Below, piece by piece: positions 1 to 46,054 of a stretch of DNA of 46,054 bases (position 1 is the stretch's first letter; each line of letters starts with the position of its first letter). The notes below the pieces were generated by a model. That model saw only the letters and a program-made list of their open reading frames with translations, did no database searches and was not told where the DNA came from. The position numbers were made by a program, and so were the translations under genes. The stretch lies in the sequence record MN164484.2. One strand, 5' to 3'. The DNA comes from Escherichia virus ECH1.

Positions 1-248
1 TGAACTCTTTCTTTATATGCAAACTTGAAACAGGCGATTCTCATATGTGTGTGATGCATTCGATTGAATAAGTCAATAGGTCAGAGAAAGAAAACGGGCA
101 ATTTACGCAACTTTTTGCAAATTCATCCTCGTCACAAGGTTACTAATTACTTTACTTATCGCGTGTAGATAATCTGCAATACTTACGCATATATCGCCAA
201 ATCACGCGCTGGTTACAAATAAATCCCTTATATATAAACAACTTAGAT

Positions 249-288
249 TTATTATTATTATTATTATATATATGTAACTATTGTAACC
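249..288. repeat. AT-rich block (TTA)n-TATATATAT followed by GTAAC-N5-GTAAC; second copy at 25878-25920
   Basis: Direct reading; about 80 percent identical to the block at 25878-25920; sits in the non-coding region upstream of the first plus-strand genes. Confidence 0.6.
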
Positions 289-527
289 ATGTCATCGGGC
301 ACGTTGATTCAAAATCCTATATTGCGCGCGACTTTTATTTATATATTAGCGGAAGGTATAGCACCACATTTAGGTCGGTTACAGCTGTCTACTCGGTTAC
401 ACCCGCAGGCATACAGGTGTCAGCAAAATATTTTGTGTACATTTTGAGTATACCGCTTGTCTACGCGTACTTGAGGTACTATAGTTATCTCACACCAAAG
501 AGAGGTGTCATTAAAAGGGTTATTTAA

Positions 528-2970: not shown

Positions 2971-3212
2971 TGATGTTTGGATTATCAGAAGCACACTTCA
3001 ACGCAGTTAAACGCCAGGCAGCAAAGTTGAACGAAGAGTACAGCAAGTTATCGCCAAAACAGCGCAAGGACGATAAGCAGGTTGCGGAATTGATTTCTAA
3101 GATGTGGGAACCAGTGTTCACAATCATTAGTCGAGATAGATTTGTCTGGACTAGTGGATATCTTAAGGGTCGCGTTGGTCATGACGAGAATGGTCAATCG
3201 TTGTACGAATAG
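2970..3212 (+). CDS. hypothetical protein (80 aa)
   Basis: ORF with ATG. Confidence 0.45.
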   Translation: MMFGLSEAHFNAVKRQAAKLNEEYSKLSPKQRKDDKQVAELISKMWEPVFTIISRDRFVWTSGYLKGRVGHDENGQSLYE

Positions 3213-3486: not shown

Positions 3487-3561
3487 GCTCTGTTAGCTTA
3501 ATGGAAAAAGCCGCAGCCTTCTAAGCTGTTGATGGTGGTTCGACTCCACCACGGAGCGCCA
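3487..3561 (+). tRNA. tRNA-Arg (anticodon TCT), CCA encoded
   Basis: Manual cloverleaf: acceptor GCTCTGT/ACGGAGC (one G-U), D-stem GCTT/AAGC, anticodon stem GCAGC/GCTGT, loop CTTCTAA with U33 and A37, T-arm GGTGG-TTCGACT-CCACC, discriminator G then CCA. Confidence 0.8.
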
Positions 3562-11598: not shown

Positions 11599-12028
11599 AA
11601 ATATTGGAAGCGTGGCTACTTTTGAGAAATCTATTGCTGACTGGATTAACAGAGCAGATAAGGGATTTGAAATTGTAGTCGCCAACACGGTTACCAAGAC
11701 AGCCAACGCAATTGTGGACTTATCCCCGGTCGATACTGGTAGGTTCAAGGCTAACTGGCAAATCACCGCAAACTCACCAGCTCAGCAATCACTGAATGAG
11801 TACGATCAGACTGGTGGGCAGACAAAAACATATCTCGCCAGACAGGCTAGAGCGGTCGCTAACTCAAAAGCTACGAGTGTTATTTATATAACCAACCGAC
11901 TTGATTACGCAGCAGATCTTGAGTACGGAGCTTCAAATCAGGCTCCAGCTGGCGTTTTGGGAGTGGTGCAAGCAAGGTTGGGCAGGTATTTCCAGGAAGC
12001 GGTAGAGGAGGCTCGTCATGCAATATGA
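11591..12028 (+). CDS. tail completion/neck protein (putative)
   Basis: ATG at 11591 overlaps the upstream stop; the longer 11414 start is rejected. Confidence 0.4.
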   Translation: MARNIGSVATFEKSIADWINRADKGFEIVVANTVTKTANAIVDLSPVDTGRFKANWQITANSPAQQSLNEYDQTGGQTKTYLARQARAVANSKATSVIYITNRLDYAADLEYGASNQAPAGVLGVVQARLGRYFQEAVEEARHAI

Positions 12029-12419
12029 ATTATCATTAGCAGCAAGGAAATTCGTCGACGATTTGTTGGTAAATGAATTTCCGGTCAGGTATCCAGTTGC
12101 GTGGGAGAATTGTGAGTTTAAACCCCCTGCCGATGGCTCAATCTGGCTTAAGTACGACTACACGGAAGTTGACACCGTAACTTACGGATTAAGCAGGAAG
12201 TGCAAATACTATGTAGGCATGGTGCAGGTTTCTGTTTTCTTCAGTCCTGGAACTGGAATTGACAGGCCGAGACGGATTGCTAATCAATTGGCAGAATCTA
12301 TCGTTGATGGTACAATGCTTGATAGCGGGACCATTTATGAGTCTGGAGTTGTTAACCCGGTTATCAAATCCAAGTCTGGGTGGTTTATCCCGGTTCGTTT
12401 TTATGTTCGTCTAGACTAA
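12018..12419 (+). CDS. tail terminator-like protein (putative)
   Basis: 133 aa immediately upstream of the major tail gene. Confidence 0.4.
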   Translation: MQYELSLAARKFVDDLLVNEFPVRYPVAWENCEFKPPADGSIWLKYDYTEVDTVTYGLSRKCKYYVGMVQVSVFFSPGTGIDRPRRIANQLAESIVDGTMLDSGTIYESGVVNPVIKSKSGWFIPVRFYVRLD

Positions 12420-12434
12420 CAAAAGGAAAAATAT

Positions 12435-13091
12435 ATGGCCCATCTTAGTAATGGAACTCAAGTGTTCGTTGAAGGTTCTCGTGGCGACGCTGTTGCAGTT
12501 ACAGCAATCTCTAACGCAGCAAGCCCTGTTCTAACTGTAGATGACGCATCTGGTATCGCGGCTGGTGATTACCTGCTGTTTACCGCGTCTGCTTCCACCC
12601 TTCTTGCTGACAAGCAGGTTCGAGTTACCTCAGTTACTGGCACGTCAATCACTGTAGAAGGTATCGATACTTCTAATACCACTAAATTCCCGGCTGGTTT
12701 GACTGGTGAAGTGGTTAAGATTCTTTCATGGTTCGAAGTTCCGTGCGTTCAGGACGTATCTACTGACGGCGGCGAGCAGCAGTTCGTTAACTTCCAGTGT
12801 CTTTCTGATGACCGTGAACAGCAGATTCCGACTTATAAATCTGCCGTAACAAACACCTTTACCTTTGCTCACGAGTACACCAACCCGGTTTATCCGGTTC
12901 TGCGTAACTACGATGAGTCTGGCCAGGTTGTTGCGATTCGCCTGTTCGTACCTCGCGCTCAGGAAATGCGCTTGCAGTCCGGCACTATCGCTTTCAACGA
13001 CACGCCAACAATTGGTGTTAACGAAATCGAAACGGTATCTATCGCTGTATCCATTCGTGGTCGCTTGTCCTCCGTGGCAGCTGAAGTTTAA
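12435..13091 (+). CDS. major tail (tube) protein (putative)
   Basis: 218 aa, Thr/Ser/Val-rich; position before the chaperone pair; terminator follows. Confidence 0.6.
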   Translation: MAHLSNGTQVFVEGSRGDAVAVTAISNAASPVLTVDDASGIAAGDYLLFTASASTLLADKQVRVTSVTGTSITVEGIDTSNTTKFPAGLTGEVVKILSWFEVPCVQDVSTDGGEQQFVNFQCLSDDREQQIPTYKSAVTNTFTFAHEYTNPVYPVLRNYDESGQVVAIRLFVPRAQEMRLQSGTIAFNDTPTIGVNEIETVSIAVSIRGRLSSVAAEV

Positions 13092-13099
13092 AACACAAA

Positions 13100-13124
13100 C
13101 CCTCTTCGGAGGGAATTTTTTATT
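13100..13124 (+). terminator. rho-independent terminator (CCCTC-TTCG-GAGGG plus AATTTTTTATT)
   Basis: Hairpin plus T-rich run. Confidence 0.55.
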
Positions 13125-13169
13125 GATAGCACTTTTTGTTAAAGACTAAAAATCAAAATGCTGTATAGT
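13125..13169 (+). promoter_or_regulatory. conserved promoter-like cassette (GATAGCACTTTTTGTTAAA, 20 nt, TATAGT)
   Basis: Motif 13125-13143; TATAGT 13164-13169; leader ATCATCGAAACGAAATGAG; ATG 13202. Confidence 0.5.
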
Positions 13170-13201
13170 TAAATCATCGAAACGAAATGAGAAATTAAGA
13201 A

Positions 13202-13468
13202 ATGAATAGTAAGTTAGAAGTATTATCCGCACTTCGCGGCCCTATTTGTGTAGCTGCGCTGGTTGCCTTTTATGCAGCAGTTCAGATTATCAACCCAACA
13301 AGAGCGGAAACAGCAAACTCTGACGCGGCAAAATACAATTCGGTTTTCTCTGAGCACAAGGCAATCTGCGAGAAGGCTTCTGGTAGCAAGATTGAGCAGG
13401 TTCTGAAGTATGGCAAGGAAATCTGCGTAGATATCGCGCACGACATTGCAAAAGAAAGCACTAAGTAA
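13202..13468 (+). CDS. moron: small secreted/membrane protein (88 aa, four Cys)
   Basis: N-terminal hydrophobic segment ICVAALVAFYAAVQII; own promoter-like cassette; sits between tail tube and chaperone genes. Confidence 0.45.
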   Translation: MNSKLEVLSALRGPICVAALVAFYAAVQIINPTRAETANSDAAKYNSVFSEHKAICEKASGSKIEQVLKYGKEICVDIAHDIAKESTK

Positions 13469-13504
13469 TACAATAATCAAACACTAAAAAAGAGGATTAA
13501 CGAG

Positions 13505-13819
13505 ATGGCAAAGTTCAAACTTTCACTAGCGGCACTACCTGACTTTAAACTGCCTGTAAAATTCAAGCTAGCTAACGACCAGGATGTAGAGGTTATGTTC
13601 ACAGTTAAGCACAAGAAAACTTCTGAACTGCAGGAGTTGCTTAACAAGGAAAACCTGAGCACTAAAGAGCTTATTATGGCAATTGCCTCTGATTGGGATT
13701 TAGAGGAAGAGTACAATGAGGAAAACGTTAATGAGTTCTCCGATCTGTTCCCGACTTCAACCGTTGCTTTGACTACTGCTTACATGCAGGCACTGGCGGG
13801 TCAGCGAGTAAAAAACTAA
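13505..13819 (+). CDS. tail assembly chaperone (gpG-like)
   Basis: 104 aa acidic protein just upstream of the tape measure; ends in slippery heptamer A AAA AAC. Confidence 0.65.
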   Translation: MAKFKLSLAALPDFKLPVKFKLANDQDVEVMFTVKHKKTSELQELLNKENLSTKELIMAIASDWDLEEEYNEENVNEFSDLFPTSTVALTTAYMQALAGQRVKN

Positions 13820-14139
13820 AGAGGGCGATGTATCTACAGTACCAGTCAGAGCCAACTGATGCCGAGCTGGAAGCTATTGGGATGCGCCGCTCTGATTACG
13901 AAGATGAAGAGCCCGAGGTTTTACACTTCGACGAGAACATGATGAAGGCTTGGGACATTTATTGTTCAATGGCTACACAATGGAGAGTCGGAGCTAACGG
14001 AGCTACAGGGCTAGATTACAACGTGCTAAATTTCCTCTTTAGAGTGTATAATGTTTCTGAAGAAGAATTGGTGCTCAGCGATTTACGCATCCTTGAAGCT
14101 AAGGCTCTTGAGATGATGGATAACCTGAGAAAAAAATAA
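13505..14139 (+). CDS. tail assembly chaperone G-T fusion via programmed -1 frameshift at 13810-13816
   Basis: Canonical X XXY YYZ heptamer A AAA AAC in the zero frame; the -1 frame is open and in phase with ORF 13828-14139. Confidence 0.6.
13828..14139 (+). CDS. gpT-like chaperone extension ORF (103 aa; may also be translated from its own ATG)
   Basis: ATG with RBS GAGGG; in phase with the -1 frame of the upstream chaperone. Confidence 0.5.
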   Translation: MYLQYQSEPTDAELEAIGMRRSDYEDEEPEVLHFDENMMKAWDIYCSMATQWRVGANGATGLDYNVLNFLFRVYNVSEEELVLSDLRILEAKALEMMDNLRKK

Positions 14140-14160
14140 CCCGCTTCGGCGGGTTTTCTA
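14138..14160 (+). terminator. rho-independent terminator (AACCCGC-TTCG-GCGGGTT plus T-run)
   Basis: Hairpin identical to the one at 9399-9420. Confidence 0.6.
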
Positions 14161-14174
14161 TTATGGAGGCTTAG

Positions 14175-17162
14175 ATGGCAACAAATGAATTAGCCGGAAT
14201 CACACTAGCCGTAGATGTCTCGCAAGTAGACAGGGGCACGCAATCCCTGCAAAAGTTCAGGCAGGCAAACCAGCAAGCCGCTTCCGGAATTAGTGAATTC
14301 GTCAATGCTGAGCAGGTCGCAAAAGACCAAGCCAGAGACACGGCTCGCGCACTGGCTGAACAGCAAGCATCTTTAGCTAAATTGCAAACAGCTATTGACC
14401 CAACTGCGGCAAAGTTCCGTAAGCTGCAAGAGGCTGCTGTAGGTCTGGATAAGGCTTTCGCGGCTGGCGTAGTTCCTGATGAGGAGTTTTTCCGGTTAGG
14501 TGAGGCACTTGAAACTCAGAACGCAAAACTTGCTCGTTCACGTGCTGCGCTAACTGAAGAGGGAAGGGCTGCGGCGCAGGCTGCAAAGGATAAGGCAAAA
14601 GCAAAGGCTGAAGCTGACAGGTTCATTGCATCACTTGAGCGACAGGCTCAAGCGGCAACATTGACGCGTGAGGAGTACTTGAAGTTACAGGCTGCTCAGC
14701 TTGGCGTAAGCTCTCAGGCTGCACCCATCATTGACAGAATCGCCGACGCATCACAGAAGGCAAGCACCCAGTTAATCGCTCAGAGCAAGGCTTTTCAGCG
14801 CTCTGGCTTAAGCGCAGGTCAATACAAGAATGCCATATCTCAACTACCAGCGCAGATTACTGATATTGGCACGTCGCTTGCTGGAGGCATTCCGATTTGG
14901 CTTATTGCAATTCAGCAGGGTGGGCAGATCAAGGATGCATTTGGCGGTATTGGTAACACCTTTAGATTCGCGCTTGCAGCCTTAAACCCATTTAATGTAG
15001 CTGTTGGTGTTTTGGGTGGCGCACTTATTGCTCTTGGTGTTGGTGCAGCTCAGGCTGAAAGTGAATTCAGAGCATTAAACTCCGCAATTGCTTTCTCCAA
15101 CAACTCTACAATCGCATCAATCTCGCAGGTTAGAGAGTTGGTTAGCTCTGTTTCTGATGCAACAGGTGCTACCAGAGGACTTGTGACTAGCATCGCAACA
15201 AGCCTTATTGAGCAAGGGAACCTTACGCTGACGCAGATTGACAAGATTACTAAATCGACCGCAAGATGGGCGCAGTTGACAGGTAAGGATGCGAAGGAGA
15301 TTACTGGTTACTATAACCAGATTGCAAGCGACCCAATCCAGGGTTTAGTTGATTTGGATAAGCGCTTTAACTTCCTCACACAGGGGCAGTTGACGACAAT
15401 CGAAAACCTGAGAAAGACAAAGGGAGAAGTTGAGGCCGTTACTGCTGCGATTGATATTTTCAGCAAGTCTCAGGAAGCCAACCTTAACGACATAGCTGCG
15501 CAGTTAACTCCGCTTGAGCTAGCCTGGAATGATTTCAGAAAGTACATCTCTGATATCTGGGATGCAATTAGTCGTAGAACGGTCGGGGCGCTGAACCTAT
15601 TTGTTGACGTAATCGCCGGAACGATTGAACAGATCAGGGTATTCATTAACCAGGGTGATGTTCTGATTGGTGAATTCGTAATTAGCGCAACTCAGGCATT
15701 GCAGAACATTCCTGGTCTTGATGGCGTTGGTGATGATGTTATCAAGGGGCAGCAGAAGATTATCGATGCCGCCAAGAAGCAAAACCTTGAGCTAGAGAAG
15801 TCTATCAAGGAGCGAGATGCCAGAATCAGAGAGGGAGAGCTTGGTTACGTTACTCGCAGAGAAAATCAGAATACCAATGAGCAGTCAGGTACTGATGAGG
15901 AATTTGCAAAAAGGAAGAAGGCGCTTCAGGATGAGCTTGATGCGATCAAGAAGAACAGGAAAGAAGAAAATAGTAGGGTTAAGGAGCAAAGAGATTTAAC
16001 AATTGGTTATGAATCTGGCGTTCTGGCGCTTCAGGCTCAACTCAAGGTGCTTCAGGAAAACAGGGATATTGGCGCAGTAATAAGCAATGAGCGCAAACAG
16101 TATCTTCAGGAGGAGGCCAAATTCAGGATTCTTGAGCAGAGACAACTTGATGGCTCAATTACCAAAGAGCAAGCAAGACTTCTCATTGAAAAGGATAAAG
16201 TTCTTGAGTTAGCCAGACAGAAGGCTGAGCTAGGTGATCAGATTGTTTTGCAGGAGCGAGCTAATAAGTTAGCTGAAGATAACCGCAAGAAGATTCTTCA
16301 GATTAACAATGAGGCAAGTAACATTGATTTGGGTGCTGGTTTATCATCTCGCGAGCAGCAGAGAGCAAAAGAGATTCAGGCTCTTCAATCCAATCAGGTT
16401 AATGCTGGTGGTTCTGTTGATGATGTTGATTTTCAGCAACTTCTCGAAGCAAGAAAGAAATGCTATGCTCAGGAGGATGCGCATACGTGCAACTGGCTCG
16501 CTGGCGTAACAACAAATCTTGCTACCTGGGCTCAGAGCGCGACGGAATGCACTCAAATTGCTGGAAGTTTCACCACGACAGTCTTTGAAGGTATTACAGA
16601 CCAGATTACAAACCTTGTATCCACTGGTGAGACGAACTTCAGGGATTTTACTGTTAGCATCCTTAAGCAGATTGCTAAGATTGCAACCCAGCTTCTTTTT
16701 GTTAAGGCTATTGAGTCTAGCTTATGTAGCTTCGGTGGTGGTGGCGCTAATGCATTTGGTTCGATTGCATCTGGTTTTGGGTTCGCTACCGGCGGTTACA
16801 CTGGGGATGGTGGGAAGTATCAGCCAGCCGGTACGCTGCATCGTGGAGAGTTTGTATTCACAAAAGAAGCGACAAGCCGAATTGGTGTTAAGAACCTTTA
16901 CGCACTGATGAAAGGTTACGCAAACGGCGGAGCGGTTGGTGGTCCATCTGGTTATTCTGGTGGTGGTTTGGTTTCTGGAGGATCAGATGTTAATGTTAGC
17001 GGTATCACTGTTAACGTTAATGGTGGCGTTGGTAGCGACCCAGAGCAAGCAAAGGCGTTGCAAAACGGCGTTAAGGCCATCGTAGCGGAAGAGATTGCGC
17101 AGTCTTTCCAGCAGGGTGGGCGTGCTTATGCTTACCTTCGCGGATTCAACTACTACCACTAA
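14175..17162 (+). CDS. tail tape measure protein
   Basis: 995 aa, coiled-coil Ala/Gln/Lys-rich, hydrophobic central segments, Gly-rich C-terminus; position after chaperones. Confidence 0.9.
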   Translation: MATNELAGITLAVDVSQVDRGTQSLQKFRQANQQAASGISEFVNAEQVAKDQARDTARALAEQQASLAKLQTAIDPTAAKFRKLQEAAVGLDKAFAAGVVPDEEFFRLGEALETQNAKLARSRAALTEEGRAAAQAAKDKAKAKAEADRFIASLERQAQAATLTREEYLKLQAAQLGVSSQAAPIIDRIADASQKASTQLIAQSKAFQRSGLSAGQYKNAISQLPAQITDIGTSLAGGIPIWLIAIQQGGQIKDAFGGIGNTFRFALAALNPFNVAVGVLGGALIALGVGAAQAESEFRALNSAIAFSNNSTIASISQVRELVSSVSDATGATRGLVTSIATSLIEQGNLTLTQIDKITKSTARWAQLTGKDAKEITGYYNQIASDPIQGLVDLDKRFNFLTQGQLTTIENLRKTKGEVEAVTAAIDIFSKSQEANLNDIAAQLTPLELAWNDFRKYISDIWDAISRRTVGALNLFVDVIAGTIEQIRVFINQGDVLIGEFVISATQALQNIPGLDGVGDDVIKGQQKIIDAAKKQNLELEKSIKERDARIREGELGYVTRRENQNTNEQSGTDEEFAKRKKALQDELDAIKKNRKEENSRVKEQRDLTIGYESGVLALQAQLKVLQENRDIGAVISNERKQYLQEEAKFRILEQRQLDGSITKEQARLLIEKDKVLELARQKAELGDQIVLQERANKLAEDNRKKILQINNEASNIDLGAGLSSREQQRAKEIQALQSNQVNAGGSVDDVDFQQLLEARKKCYAQEDAHTCNWLAGVTTNLATWAQSATECTQIAGSFTTTVFEGITDQITNLVSTGETNFRDFTVSILKQIAKIATQLLFVKAIESSLCSFGGGGANAFGSIASGFGFATGGYTGDGGKYQPAGTLHRGEFVFTKEATSRIGVKNLYALMKGYANGGAVGGPSGYSGGGLVSGGSDVNVSGITVNVNGGVGSDPEQAKALQNGVKAIVAEEIAQSFQQGGRAYAYLRGFNYYH

Positions 17163-17200
17163 ATGGTAAAGCCAAAAGGATTTGGCTTGCTATCATCAAC

Positions 17201-17703
17201 ATGTTAAAAGCATCAGGTGATAAACTGAAGTGGAATGATATCCCTGAGTATAGAGATTTTGTCCTTTATTGGAAGATTTCAACAAGCAACATATCAAGAA
17301 AAAAGATTGGTGATGTTGCGGGTAATCAAATGAATGATGGATACATAATGGTTCAGGCATTAAACAAAAGAATGCTTGCTCATAGGGTTGTTTGGGAAAT
17401 GCATAATGGCAGTATAACTAATGGCATGCATATAGACCATTTAAACCACATAAGGAATGACAACAGGATAGAAAACCTAAGACTGGTGTCAAGAACAGAA
17501 AACAACAGGAATAAATCAGTCAAAAGTAAACAAAACAGGTGTTTCAGGAGTTACATTAAAAGATGGGCTATTTCAGGTTTCGATAGGTGGAGAAAAAAAC
17601 AAGACTTACATAGGAAGGTTCTACACACTGGATCAGGCTACAGCAGCAAGGAAATCCGCAGAATTTCAACTATGTTACCACAATTATCATGGGGGATTTA
17701 ACT
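17201..17703 (+). CDS. HNH-AP2 homing endonuclease, frame-disrupted (HNH in one frame, AP2 domain in the +1 frame from about 17530)
   Basis: HNH motif HRVVWEMHNG...IDHLNH...NRIENLRLVSRTENN; alternate-frame AP2-like NKTGVSGVTLKDGLFQVSIGGEKNKTYIGRFYTLDQATAARKSAE; paralog of 39194-39688. Confidence 0.6.
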
Positions 17704-17704
17704 G

Positions 17705-18052
17705 ATGGCTATTGATACTTTTAACTCGTGCACGCAAATACAGGGTGGATCCAGCTCATTCAGCAACACGAACAACCTGCGACTTGTTAGCTTCGGAAAT
17801 GGTTTTGAGCAAAGAGGAACTGGTGGTTATCGCACCACCCTGAGCGCATACTCACTGACATACACCAACAAGGATTGGAGAGATGTTGACTTTTGTTTAA
17901 ACCACATCATTACCCCGTTCTTCTGGACTACGCCGCAGGGTGACACATCCATGTTCGTAATTCAGCAGGATAGCATTAGCGTTACACCACTCAGCGAGGA
18001 AGTTCAGACTGTAAACATGCAATTCGTGGAAGTCTTTAGCTCAATGCGTTAA
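17705..18052 (+). CDS. minor tail protein (lambda gpM-like)
   Basis: 115 aa, in the M position before the L, K, I, J series. Confidence 0.65.
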   Translation: MAIDTFNSCTQIQGGSSSFSNTNNLRLVSFGNGFEQRGTGGYRTTLSAYSLTYTNKDWRDVDFCLNHIITPFFWTTPQGDTSMFVIQQDSISVTPLSEEVQTVNMQFVEVFSSMR

Positions 18053-32096: not shown

Positions 32097-32115
32097 AATA
32101 GCACGAATTGCTAAA
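32097..32115 (+). promoter_or_regulatory. motif copy between primase and tail fibre genes (operator-like)
   Basis: Palindrome centre only about 32 nt from the tail-fibre ATG, which is incompatible with the usual motif-to-start geometry. Confidence 0.35.
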
Positions 32116-32134
32116 GTGGATTGTAGCATCTTTA

Positions 32135-32161
32135 GGGCATAAAAAAACCTCCCGAAGGAGG
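32135..32161 (-). terminator. rho-independent terminator after primase (CCTCC-TTCG-GGAGG plus T7)
   Basis: Hairpin plus T-run read on the minus strand. Confidence 0.6.
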
Positions 32162-45412: not shown

Positions 45413-45592
45413 TCAAATAAATGGTAGGCATTCGACGCAGCCAAGTCCATCGCAGCACATGAATTCATCTTCTGACTGGAATTGCTTTGCTAAATCAATG
45501 TCTAGCCTTCCGCGCACCACAAGGTCGGTGTAATCTTCATTAAGCCCAATCAGTGCGCACTCGTTACGTAGCTCATCTTTATTCTTTTTCAT
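45413..45592 (-). CDS. hypothetical Cys-rich protein (59 aa)
   Basis: Manual translation; contains CCDGLGCVEC. Confidence 0.3.
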   Translation of the reverse strand: MKKNKDELRNECALIGLNEDYTDLVVRGRLDIDLAKQFQSEDEFMCCDGLGCVECLPFI

Positions 45593-45756
45593 TTATCCTG
45601 GCCTTTTAAATTATGACGCTCTCTCAGAACTTCAACCCATTCTTGCGCGTCATTCTCTCTCATGAAGAAACTTAACTTTGGGTACTTGTGAAACCCTTTA
45701 AGTTCAACTATCCAATGGCCACCTTCGTAACTATAACTAACTTTCTTCTCTGTCAT
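45589..45756 (-). CDS. hypothetical protein (55 aa)
   Basis: First ORF after the long leader from the minus-strand motif promoter at 45969-46014. Confidence 0.3.
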   Translation of the reverse strand: MTEKKVSYSYEGGHWIVELKGFHKYPKLSFFMRENDAQEWVEVLRERHNLKGQDK

Positions 45757-45968
45757 TTTGTTACCTTTTAAGTTTTTCTTGTTATCGACATCTCTTCAAC
45801 GTACTCGCTACAACTCGGGGTTTTACTCCCGGCCCGGCATCCTAACAAAAGGACCCGCTCGGCGCTTTGGTGGGTGAGGTAACGCTTCCTCACATTGCGC
45901 GGTATCATTTACCCTTTTTAGTCCCTTTCGGGAGTGACTCAGAGTCTGCTACCGTGTCGATGAAATGA

Positions 45969-46014
45969 AGTATACGCACATCGATTCAATATGTCTTTAG
46001 CCAAAAGTGCTATT
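45969..46014 (-). promoter_or_regulatory. conserved promoter-like cassette on the minus strand (AATAGCACTTTTGGCTAAA, 21 nt, TATACT)
   Basis: Read as reverse complement; followed by an untranslated leader of about 210 nt. Confidence 0.45.
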
Positions 46015-46054
46015 TATCAGATTACCCAGAACCACTGGTATCATAAAGGCATTA

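Follow-up and report, generated by a model that had tools for sequence, protein, structure and literature searches.

A conserved 182-nt structured RNA predicted at the 5' end of an early mRNA in a narrow group of Braunvirinae phages

The leftward early operon of the phage genome analyzed here (46,054 bases in full, referred to below as the window) is preceded by a leader region whose 182-nt core is, with a probability of roughly 0.9, a functional structured RNA read from the minus strand. From its pattern of conservation, the element appears to be a discrete, selectively maintained RNA outside every described family, and together with the small gene that follows it seems to form an accessory early cassette, present in some Braunvirinae phages and not in others. 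A preliminary description of this DNA had proposed a long structured 5' leader after a motif promoter, and this is borne out by helices that are kept through compensatory and wobble changes, on the transcribed strand only. The evidence beyond chance comes from the comparison of homologues and not from the window sequence alone, as the stability of the single-sequence fold does not differ significantly from that of shuffled sequences (z of -1.2 for the whole leader and -1.7 for a 178-nt core).

The full window matches Escherichia phage vB_EcoS_ACG-M12 (JN986845; Drexlerviridae, Braunvirinae, Guelphvirus), with 98.4% identity in the leader region. Substitutions relative to JN986845 are scattered at about 0.2-3% per kb, and within about 12000-18000 a stretch of ~5 kb is out of register in a position-by-position comparison. 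Since the total lengths are equal, this stretch implies compensating indels, and the window is therefore a close variant of the deposited ACG-M12 sequence and not identical to it. T1-like phage genomes are circularly permuted (PMC4070988), so the window end is an arbitrary cut and the leader region runs on past it into window positions 1-527. The features of the leader and its surroundings are the following.

45969-46015, minus strand: promoter cassette, conserved in all homologues
46015-45995, minus strand: upstream box AAATAGCACTTTTGGCTAAAG, part of the promoter cassette
45974-45969, minus strand: -10 hexamer TATACT, part of the promoter cassette
45961-45962, minus strand: predicted transcription start, 7 or 8 bases past the -10, at the CATCGAAACGA initial sequence shared by all cassettes
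45782-45963, minus strand: structured RNA core of 182 nt, delimited by alignments and covariance model R1
45768-45908, minus strand: ORF ACG-M12_0077 of GenBank, 46 aa, with its ATG at 45908; spurious
45757-45781, minus strand: A-rich linker with a Shine-Dalgarno-like AAAGG at 45768-45764
45589-45756, minus strand: ACG-M12_0076, the 55-aa gene that in every copy directly follows the RNA

The minus-strand cassette, previously placed at 45969-46014, is present at 46015-45969 with both its upstream box and its -10 hexamer, and is one of 17 cassette copies in the window. Except for the copies at 32098 and 33663, the other cassettes reach a start codon within roughly 10-40 nt of the CATCGAAACGA box, which makes the ~205-nt leader exceptional. 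We infer that the leader is transcribed from this cassette, and the spacing from the -10 together with the shared CATCGAAACGA predicts a start at 45961-45962. Helix P1 of the fold described below opens with A45961, which is the 8th base past the hexamer, so that the element begins at the predicted +1; it ends 25 nt before the start codon of the 55-aa gene.

Copies of the leader are few. BLAST matched it in only nine GenBank phage records (ACG-M12 twice, SCS31, G8, four assemblies of Veterinaerplatzvirus T145P1, and IMM-001), versus 101 records that share the next downstream gene. Further copies were obtained from one metagenomic contig, through a pattern scan, and from twelve loci, through homologues of the downstream 55-aa protein, giving a comparative set of 16 distinct homologues that represent roughly five independent lineages. 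Covariance model R1, built on 11 sequences, finds exactly one copy in every genome of the homologue set at 210-228 bits, and in each case a member of the 55-aa gene family follows directly, its 52%-identical second allele included. This second allele alone occurs on more than 80 contigs. Applied with filters off to six related Braunvirinae/Rogunavirinae loci that lack the 55-aa gene, the same model returned only noise (at most 8 bits). No match to the leader was obtained by BLAST against E. coli genomes and plasmids, by exact or degenerate patterns in GTDB genomes, or by such patterns or 55-aa gene loci in IMG/VR.

RNAalifold predicts a closing helix, P1, around five hairpin domains (P2/P2b/P2c; P3/P3b; P4; P5; P6), and the only indel among the 17 copies (16 distinct sequences) is a single inserted base in one of them. 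The predicted helices are the following.

45784-45961, minus strand: closing helix P1, 7 bp, AUCGACA (45961-45955) with UGUCGAU (45790-45784)
45901-45953, minus strand: P2 domain; P2 pairs 45953-45950 with 45904-45901, plus 45947 with 45907
45945-45941 with 45915-45911, minus strand: P2b, in which three pairs vary only as U-A/U-G or C-G/U-G
45933-45922, minus strand: P2c, a GAAA-tetraloop hairpin, TCCCGAAAGGGA
45862-45900, minus strand: P3 domain, with outer helix GCGC/GCGC (45900-45897 with 45865-45862)
45893-45874, minus strand: P3b hairpin, GTGAGG..CCTCAC (GTGAGGAAGCGTTACCTCAC), with an invariant AAGCGUUA loop
45835-45857, minus strand: P4 hairpin, CGGGUCCU / AGGAU-GCC(G), with a freely variable U-rich loop
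45812-45834, minus strand: P5 hairpin, GGCCGGG / CCCG-AGUU, with a variable 8-nt loop
45797-45810, minus strand: P6 hairpin, UAGCG-AGUA-CGUUG, with two constant G·U pairs

Two of these hairpins had been noticed earlier as inverted repeats, GTGAGGAAGCGTTACCTCAC at about 45877-45896 and TCCCGAAAGGGA at about 45920-45931; both are found, offset by two to three bases, as P3b and P2c.

Covariation-aware structure prediction with homologous phages, which the preliminary description had suggested as a check, returns a conserved fold. Among 51 pairs in 16 distinct homologues, 99.0% of the 816 pair cells are standard pairs, whereas only 36-44% of cells are paired when the 3' partners are slid by 1-3 columns, and none of 500 shuffles equals either the observed covariation score or the paired fraction. 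Seven pairs have changed on both sides: one in P1 (45956/45789, C-G to A-U in 4 homologues), four in the P2 domain (two in P2 and two in P2c) and two in P4 (U-A to C-G; C-G to U-A). Variable columns make up 21 of 102 stem positions and 17 of 80 unpaired positions, with pairing nonetheless kept in the stems, and an earlier alignment of 11 sequences gave the same picture as the set of 16. The helices do not contribute evenly to this signal. The outer helix of P3 shows zero variation across homologues and thus offers no covariation evidence for or against it; the stem of P5 is likewise invariant, and only its loop varies. P3b carries G-C to G-U changes in 3 sequences along with 3 pair-breaking cells, and P6 a C-G to U-G change in two homologues. 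In the MFE fold, alternative pairing is seen around P3 and P4.

The direction of the changes points to the transcribed strand. There are 71 G·U cells, and the fold is pairable at 99.5% on the minus strand versus 87% on the plus strand; one-sided changes often turn a C-G or U-A pair into U-G, and several G·U pairs never vary, those of P6 making that hairpin strand-specific. Pairing that fits one strand only suggests a constraint on the sense that is transcribed from the cassette, and it fits an RNA rather than duplex DNA.

Shared ancestry could in principle mimic part of this picture, if a sequence without RNA function had spread recently by recombination. The borders of the element are indeed mosaic junctions: resemblance among homologues ends exactly at TCATCGA on one side and directly after GTCGATAA on the other, the promoter spacer upstream of TCATCGA can differ wholly (IMM-001, L013), and the linker after GTCGATAA is variable and tracks the allele of the 55-aa gene that is present. 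Identical cores occur beside 52%-identical genes, as in locus L020, where the core is the same as that of T145P1 and adjoins a 52%-identical protein. Identity to the window is 0.88-0.99 in the core and 0.52-0.92 in the linker, and in comparisons where the core stands at 0.88-0.97 it falls to 0.68-0.74 in the downstream gene, 0.74-0.82 in the promoter and 0.52 in the linker, a contrast between core and flanks that may come partly from mosaic recombination rather than from selection. Independent lineages are few, and column pairs outside the structure, such as columns 8/104, also look complementary and "covary" through shared ancestry, a signal that swamped a search for additional tertiary or pseudoknot covariation. 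However, 41 columns vary, about half of them in stems, and 99% of pair cells nevertheless remain standard, compared with about 40% when slid, and the pairing is in register across four helices; the changes are strand-specific; and a single base is the only indel. Neutral spread with covariation as its by-product is therefore quite improbable.

The element is gained and lost together with the gene that it precedes. In BEK1-1 and vv12210I, which belong to Veterinaerplatzvirus, the genus of T145P1, the promoter leads directly into the Shine-Dalgarno sequence and ATG of the rtp74-like gene; neither RNA nor 55-aa gene is present, and the rest of the long intergenic region is kept. Six relatives without the 55-aa gene are also without the RNA, and in them the promoter likewise opens directly onto the Shine-Dalgarno sequence and ATG of the next gene. 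The joint absence in congeners indicates an accessory early cassette and not a pac, ori or terminal site, and the element is accordingly not essential for packaging, replication or genome termini. From this distribution, the RNA appears to belong functionally or historically with the 55-aa gene.

These congeners also bear on the possibility that conservation acts on DNA, in the form of a pac site, a genome terminus, a replication origin or a single-strand initiation signal. Such a site would not be out of place within a divergent intergenic region of ~825 bp that contains an AT-rich (TTA)6 tract. Nevertheless, a pac, cos or terminal site is expected in all packaging-competent relatives, and the element is missing from BEK1-1 and vv12210I, which retain the remaining intergenic region; terS is 4 kb away, and constant G·U pairs fit one strand only. 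The packaging or terminal region offered as an alternative in the preliminary description is thus not supported, on several grounds: where a circularly permuted type of genome is cut to give the window is arbitrary, other sequence records have the element in their interior, and congeners without it must still replicate and package. A DNA-level role is very improbable.

The earlier estimate of a gap of roughly 210 nt without an ORF, ending at a first ATG at 45756, holds in part. The leader is ~205 nt long and the ATG of the conserved gene is at 45756, but an ATG occurs earlier, at 45908, and opens the 46-aa frame annotated in GenBank as ACG-M12_0077. That this frame is a true protein-coding gene might be argued from its length (46 aa in the window, 51 aa in ACG-M12) and from a weak Shine-Dalgarno-like AAGGG before its ATG. 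The homologues argue strongly against it. The ATG exists only in the window and ACG-M12 and is ATA or ACG in 9 of 11 homologues; L010 has GAG in place of an in-frame GTG; an in-frame stop interrupts the L013 copy; and, relative to ACG-M12, the window copy is itself shortened by a nonsense change. The 3' end of the frame is shifted by indels of 1-2 nt among homologues, variable columns are distributed as 6:9:8 over the codon positions, that is, with no bias to the third, and changes are mostly non-synonymous. On 14 metagenomic loci, no gene is called over the element in the gene tables of the collection, and the frame has no family match. ORF 0077 was thus rejected as a coding gene, the coding reading being hardly credible, and the GenBank annotation should be corrected. 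Public annotation over the RNA is also inconsistent elsewhere: in phage G8 (L003 1724-1924, EcG8_035) the start of the 55-aa gene is extended into helix P1, and in IMM-001 (L005) overlapping ORFs are called across the RNA on both strands.

Comparison with described RNAs suggests a new structured RNA family of narrow distribution, predicted to lie at the 5' end of a phage early mRNA. Against the 4227 models of Rfam 15, the whole window yields only a tRNA-Arg at 3487 at the gathering threshold. Permissive searches (E up to 10 / up to 1) of the window region and five homologue loci give chance-level matches only: CRISPR-DR17, on the opposite strand and at 21.8 bits against a threshold of 42, and HIV_PBS, at 17 bits against 61. 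ARAGORN and the Rfam tRNA model find no tRNA, tRNA-like RNA or tmRNA in 45600-46054. No consistent match to a hammerhead core, K-turn or T-loop was seen by eye; the variable P5 loop is T-loop-like (UUCAAAAU) in two homologues only. No account of the element was found in the genome paper of ACG-M12, in comparative papers on T1-like phages or in a viral structured-RNA catalogue. A type III (ToxI-like) toxin-antitoxin system, in which tandem direct repeats and a terminator precede the gene of an endoribonuclease toxin, is not indicated either, there being no tandem repeats in the element, no terminator and no Pfam or PHROGs match downstream, and an Hfq-dependent sRNA would be expected to have its own Rho-independent terminator with a U-tail, which is absent.

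Two classes of regulatory RNA resemble the element in position or architecture. The put RNAs of phage HK022 consist of two hairpins in ~70 nt. Like putL and putR, the element would be a structured, ORF-free RNA acting in cis directly after an early promoter, on the strand of a 3.5-kb operon, and by this reading the nascent RNA would bind the transcribing RNA polymerase and make it processively resistant to termination. It differs from them in size and architecture, with six helices in 182 nt, and no homology or Rfam match was detected. Moreover, the operon holds no intrinsic terminator to read through: on the minus strand none was found between 45757 and 42244, the first being at 42244-42227, at the operon end, and relatives express the same operon without the element. 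Put-type antitermination is thus distinctly unlikely.

A metabolite-sensing riboswitch controlling the 55-aa gene could be argued from the length of the element, its multi-helix junction, its conserved unpaired nucleotides and its covarying stems, all of which are aptamer-like, although of no known class. A possible expression platform was sought around the start codon. In the P4/L4 region, CCUUUUGUUA forms a 12-nt complement to the initiation region in the window. In the window and its relatives the complementary stretch is the start-codon region, and with the second protein allele it is the Shine-Dalgarno sequence; taken together, 10 of 15 homologues show such complementarity. However, this pairing is not better than that of 5 of 76 (about 7%) unrelated initiation regions in the window, and it is at background level in the IMM-001-like group, so we treat putative anti-Shine-Dalgarno pairing by CCUUUUGUUA as a lead only. 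The element also differs from riboswitches in having no terminator, no conserved helix that sequesters the Shine-Dalgarno sequence or AUG, no match among Rfam families even at E up to 10, and a distribution limited to one phage clade, with no bacterial copies. We consider a riboswitch improbable; put-like antitermination, riboswitch, neutral hitch-hiking, DNA-level site and annotated ORF are, in that order, progressively less likely.

The reading that we tentatively prefer, at a little under an even chance, is that of a cis-acting 5'-terminal domain of the mRNA. The first leftward early mRNA would begin with the element at its very 5' end, and P1 would sequester the first transcribed nucleotides, leaving a base-paired 5' end. 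Stabilizer hairpins at 5' ends, such as that of the ompA 5' UTR, counter decay that depends on the 5' end and involves RNase E and RppH. By analogy, the paired end of the element may protect the transcript from RppH/RNase E decay, and the invariant loops and junctions may fold into a platform that a protein partner, perhaps the 55-aa product, recognizes. Translation of the first cistron would be set by this partner, as would, through coupling at an ATGA, that of the next.

Likeness to the ompA type of stabilizer lies in the pairing of the first transcribed nucleotides, with P1 at the predicted +1, and in the unstructured A-rich stretch and ribosome-binding site that follow the element. Unlike such stabilizers, which are simple hairpins with little sequence constraint, the element is a six-helix domain of 182 nt with invariant loops and junctions, and a plain 5' stabilizer needs no invariant loops. 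As in the T4 gene 32 pseudoknot and ribosomal-protein leaders, autoregulatory structures to which the product of the downstream gene binds, a structured leader is tied to one small downstream gene family and is gained and lost with it. The 55-aa gene and the next, rtp74-like gene meet in an ATGA (window 45589-45592), where the stop of the former overlaps the start of the latter, which suggests translational coupling of the rtp74-like gene to the gene of the cassette. The 55-aa product is modeled by AF2 as beta-beta-beta-alpha (pLDDT 84). No Pfam or PHROG family was found for it, and the model has no significant match in PDB or BFVD; weak dsRBD-type matches with E above 0.4 were not trusted. 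In contrast to what autoregulatory leaders would suggest, the protein is not basic (roughly +1 net charge by manual residue count), and the RNA variants do not co-vary with its two alleles. Across homologues, the ribosome-binding site was not seen to take part in any conserved alternative pairing, and accessibility of the Shine-Dalgarno sequence in partition-function folding was inconsistent among them.

In the main alternative, the 182-nt domain would be cleaved free in the A-rich linker and act in trans, alone or as an RNP with the 55-aa protein, by binding a host factor as an early takeover or anti-defense decoy. It would then be explained that the cassette is accessory, first in an early operon, and gained or lost as a unit with a small gene; that loops and junctions are invariant while linker and Shine-Dalgarno sequence are free to vary; that the domain is closed and self-contained, with borders that are recombination breakpoints; and that no expression platform was found. 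The domain has, however, no terminator or defined 3' end of its own, it shows no likeness to host RNAs, CRISPR repeats or ToxI-type repeats, and RNA variants do not follow the two protein alleles. We regard action in trans as possible but doubtful. The narrower proposal of a trans-acting RNA that, alone or in an RNP with the 55-aa protein, inhibits a host defense or RNA-metabolism factor or serves as a structured decoy for it is unlikely. With RNA anti-CRISPRs, which mimic repeats, and pseudo-ToxI decoys the element shares the nature of an accessory early phage RNA without a coding role; it differs from them in having no repeats, a CRISPR match that is below threshold and on the opposite strand, and no toxin-sized partner.

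It is rare for a virulent E. coli phage to carry a complex folded RNA with invariant loops. Control of the stability or translation of the first early cistron would make the element a new and compact module of 5' regulation; action in trans or jointly with the 55-aa partner would make it an RNA-based device for host takeover or anti-defense, and a trans-acting decoy would constitute a new class of RNA-based counter-defense in virulent coliphages. The fold prediction is directly testable, as borders, helices and compensatory mutations are all specified, and ACG-M12 and its relatives plate on laboratory E. coli.

Several minor observations concern the cassette family and the intergenic region. 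The 17 cassette sites are found on both strands (for example, 18846, 36163 and 39691 on the plus strand and 46013, 44831 and 25435 on the minus strand), with the consensus (A)ATAGCAC-NNNN-TTGCTAAAG 22 nt upstream of a TATAGT-like -10, followed by the shared CATCGAAACGA. The TTGCTA of the box is at about -40 and not at -35, and the missing standard -35 suggests that cassette promoters depend on a factor; we take the box to be loosely like T4 MotA-type middle promoters. At 32098-32160 on the plus strand, between tail-fiber and primase genes that are both on the minus strand, a copy of the upstream box (ATAGCACGAATTGCTAAAG) has no clear -10, and a strong hairpin (CCTCCCGAAGGAGG) comes directly after it; the site could be half of a cassette left as a relic, or give a short antisense transcript. 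Just 5' of the promoter cassette, most relatives have (C/A)TTGCAAT / TGCAA(C/T)A repeats that resemble operators or iterons (L004 1400-1490, L017 2770-2850, L007 8900-8990), and the window and ACG-M12 have unrelated sequence in their place. The ~825-bp divergent intergenic region (window 1-527 plus 45996-46054), which wraps across the window ends, separates the early leftward operon from a divergent DUF7174-family gene (ACG-M12_0001) that begins there. Its (TTA)6 tract is at 249-267, a TTA/TAA microsatellite also occurs in L004 (about 1165-1200) and L017 (about 3075-3110), and, independently of the RNA element, the region is a candidate for an origin or for a regulatory role.
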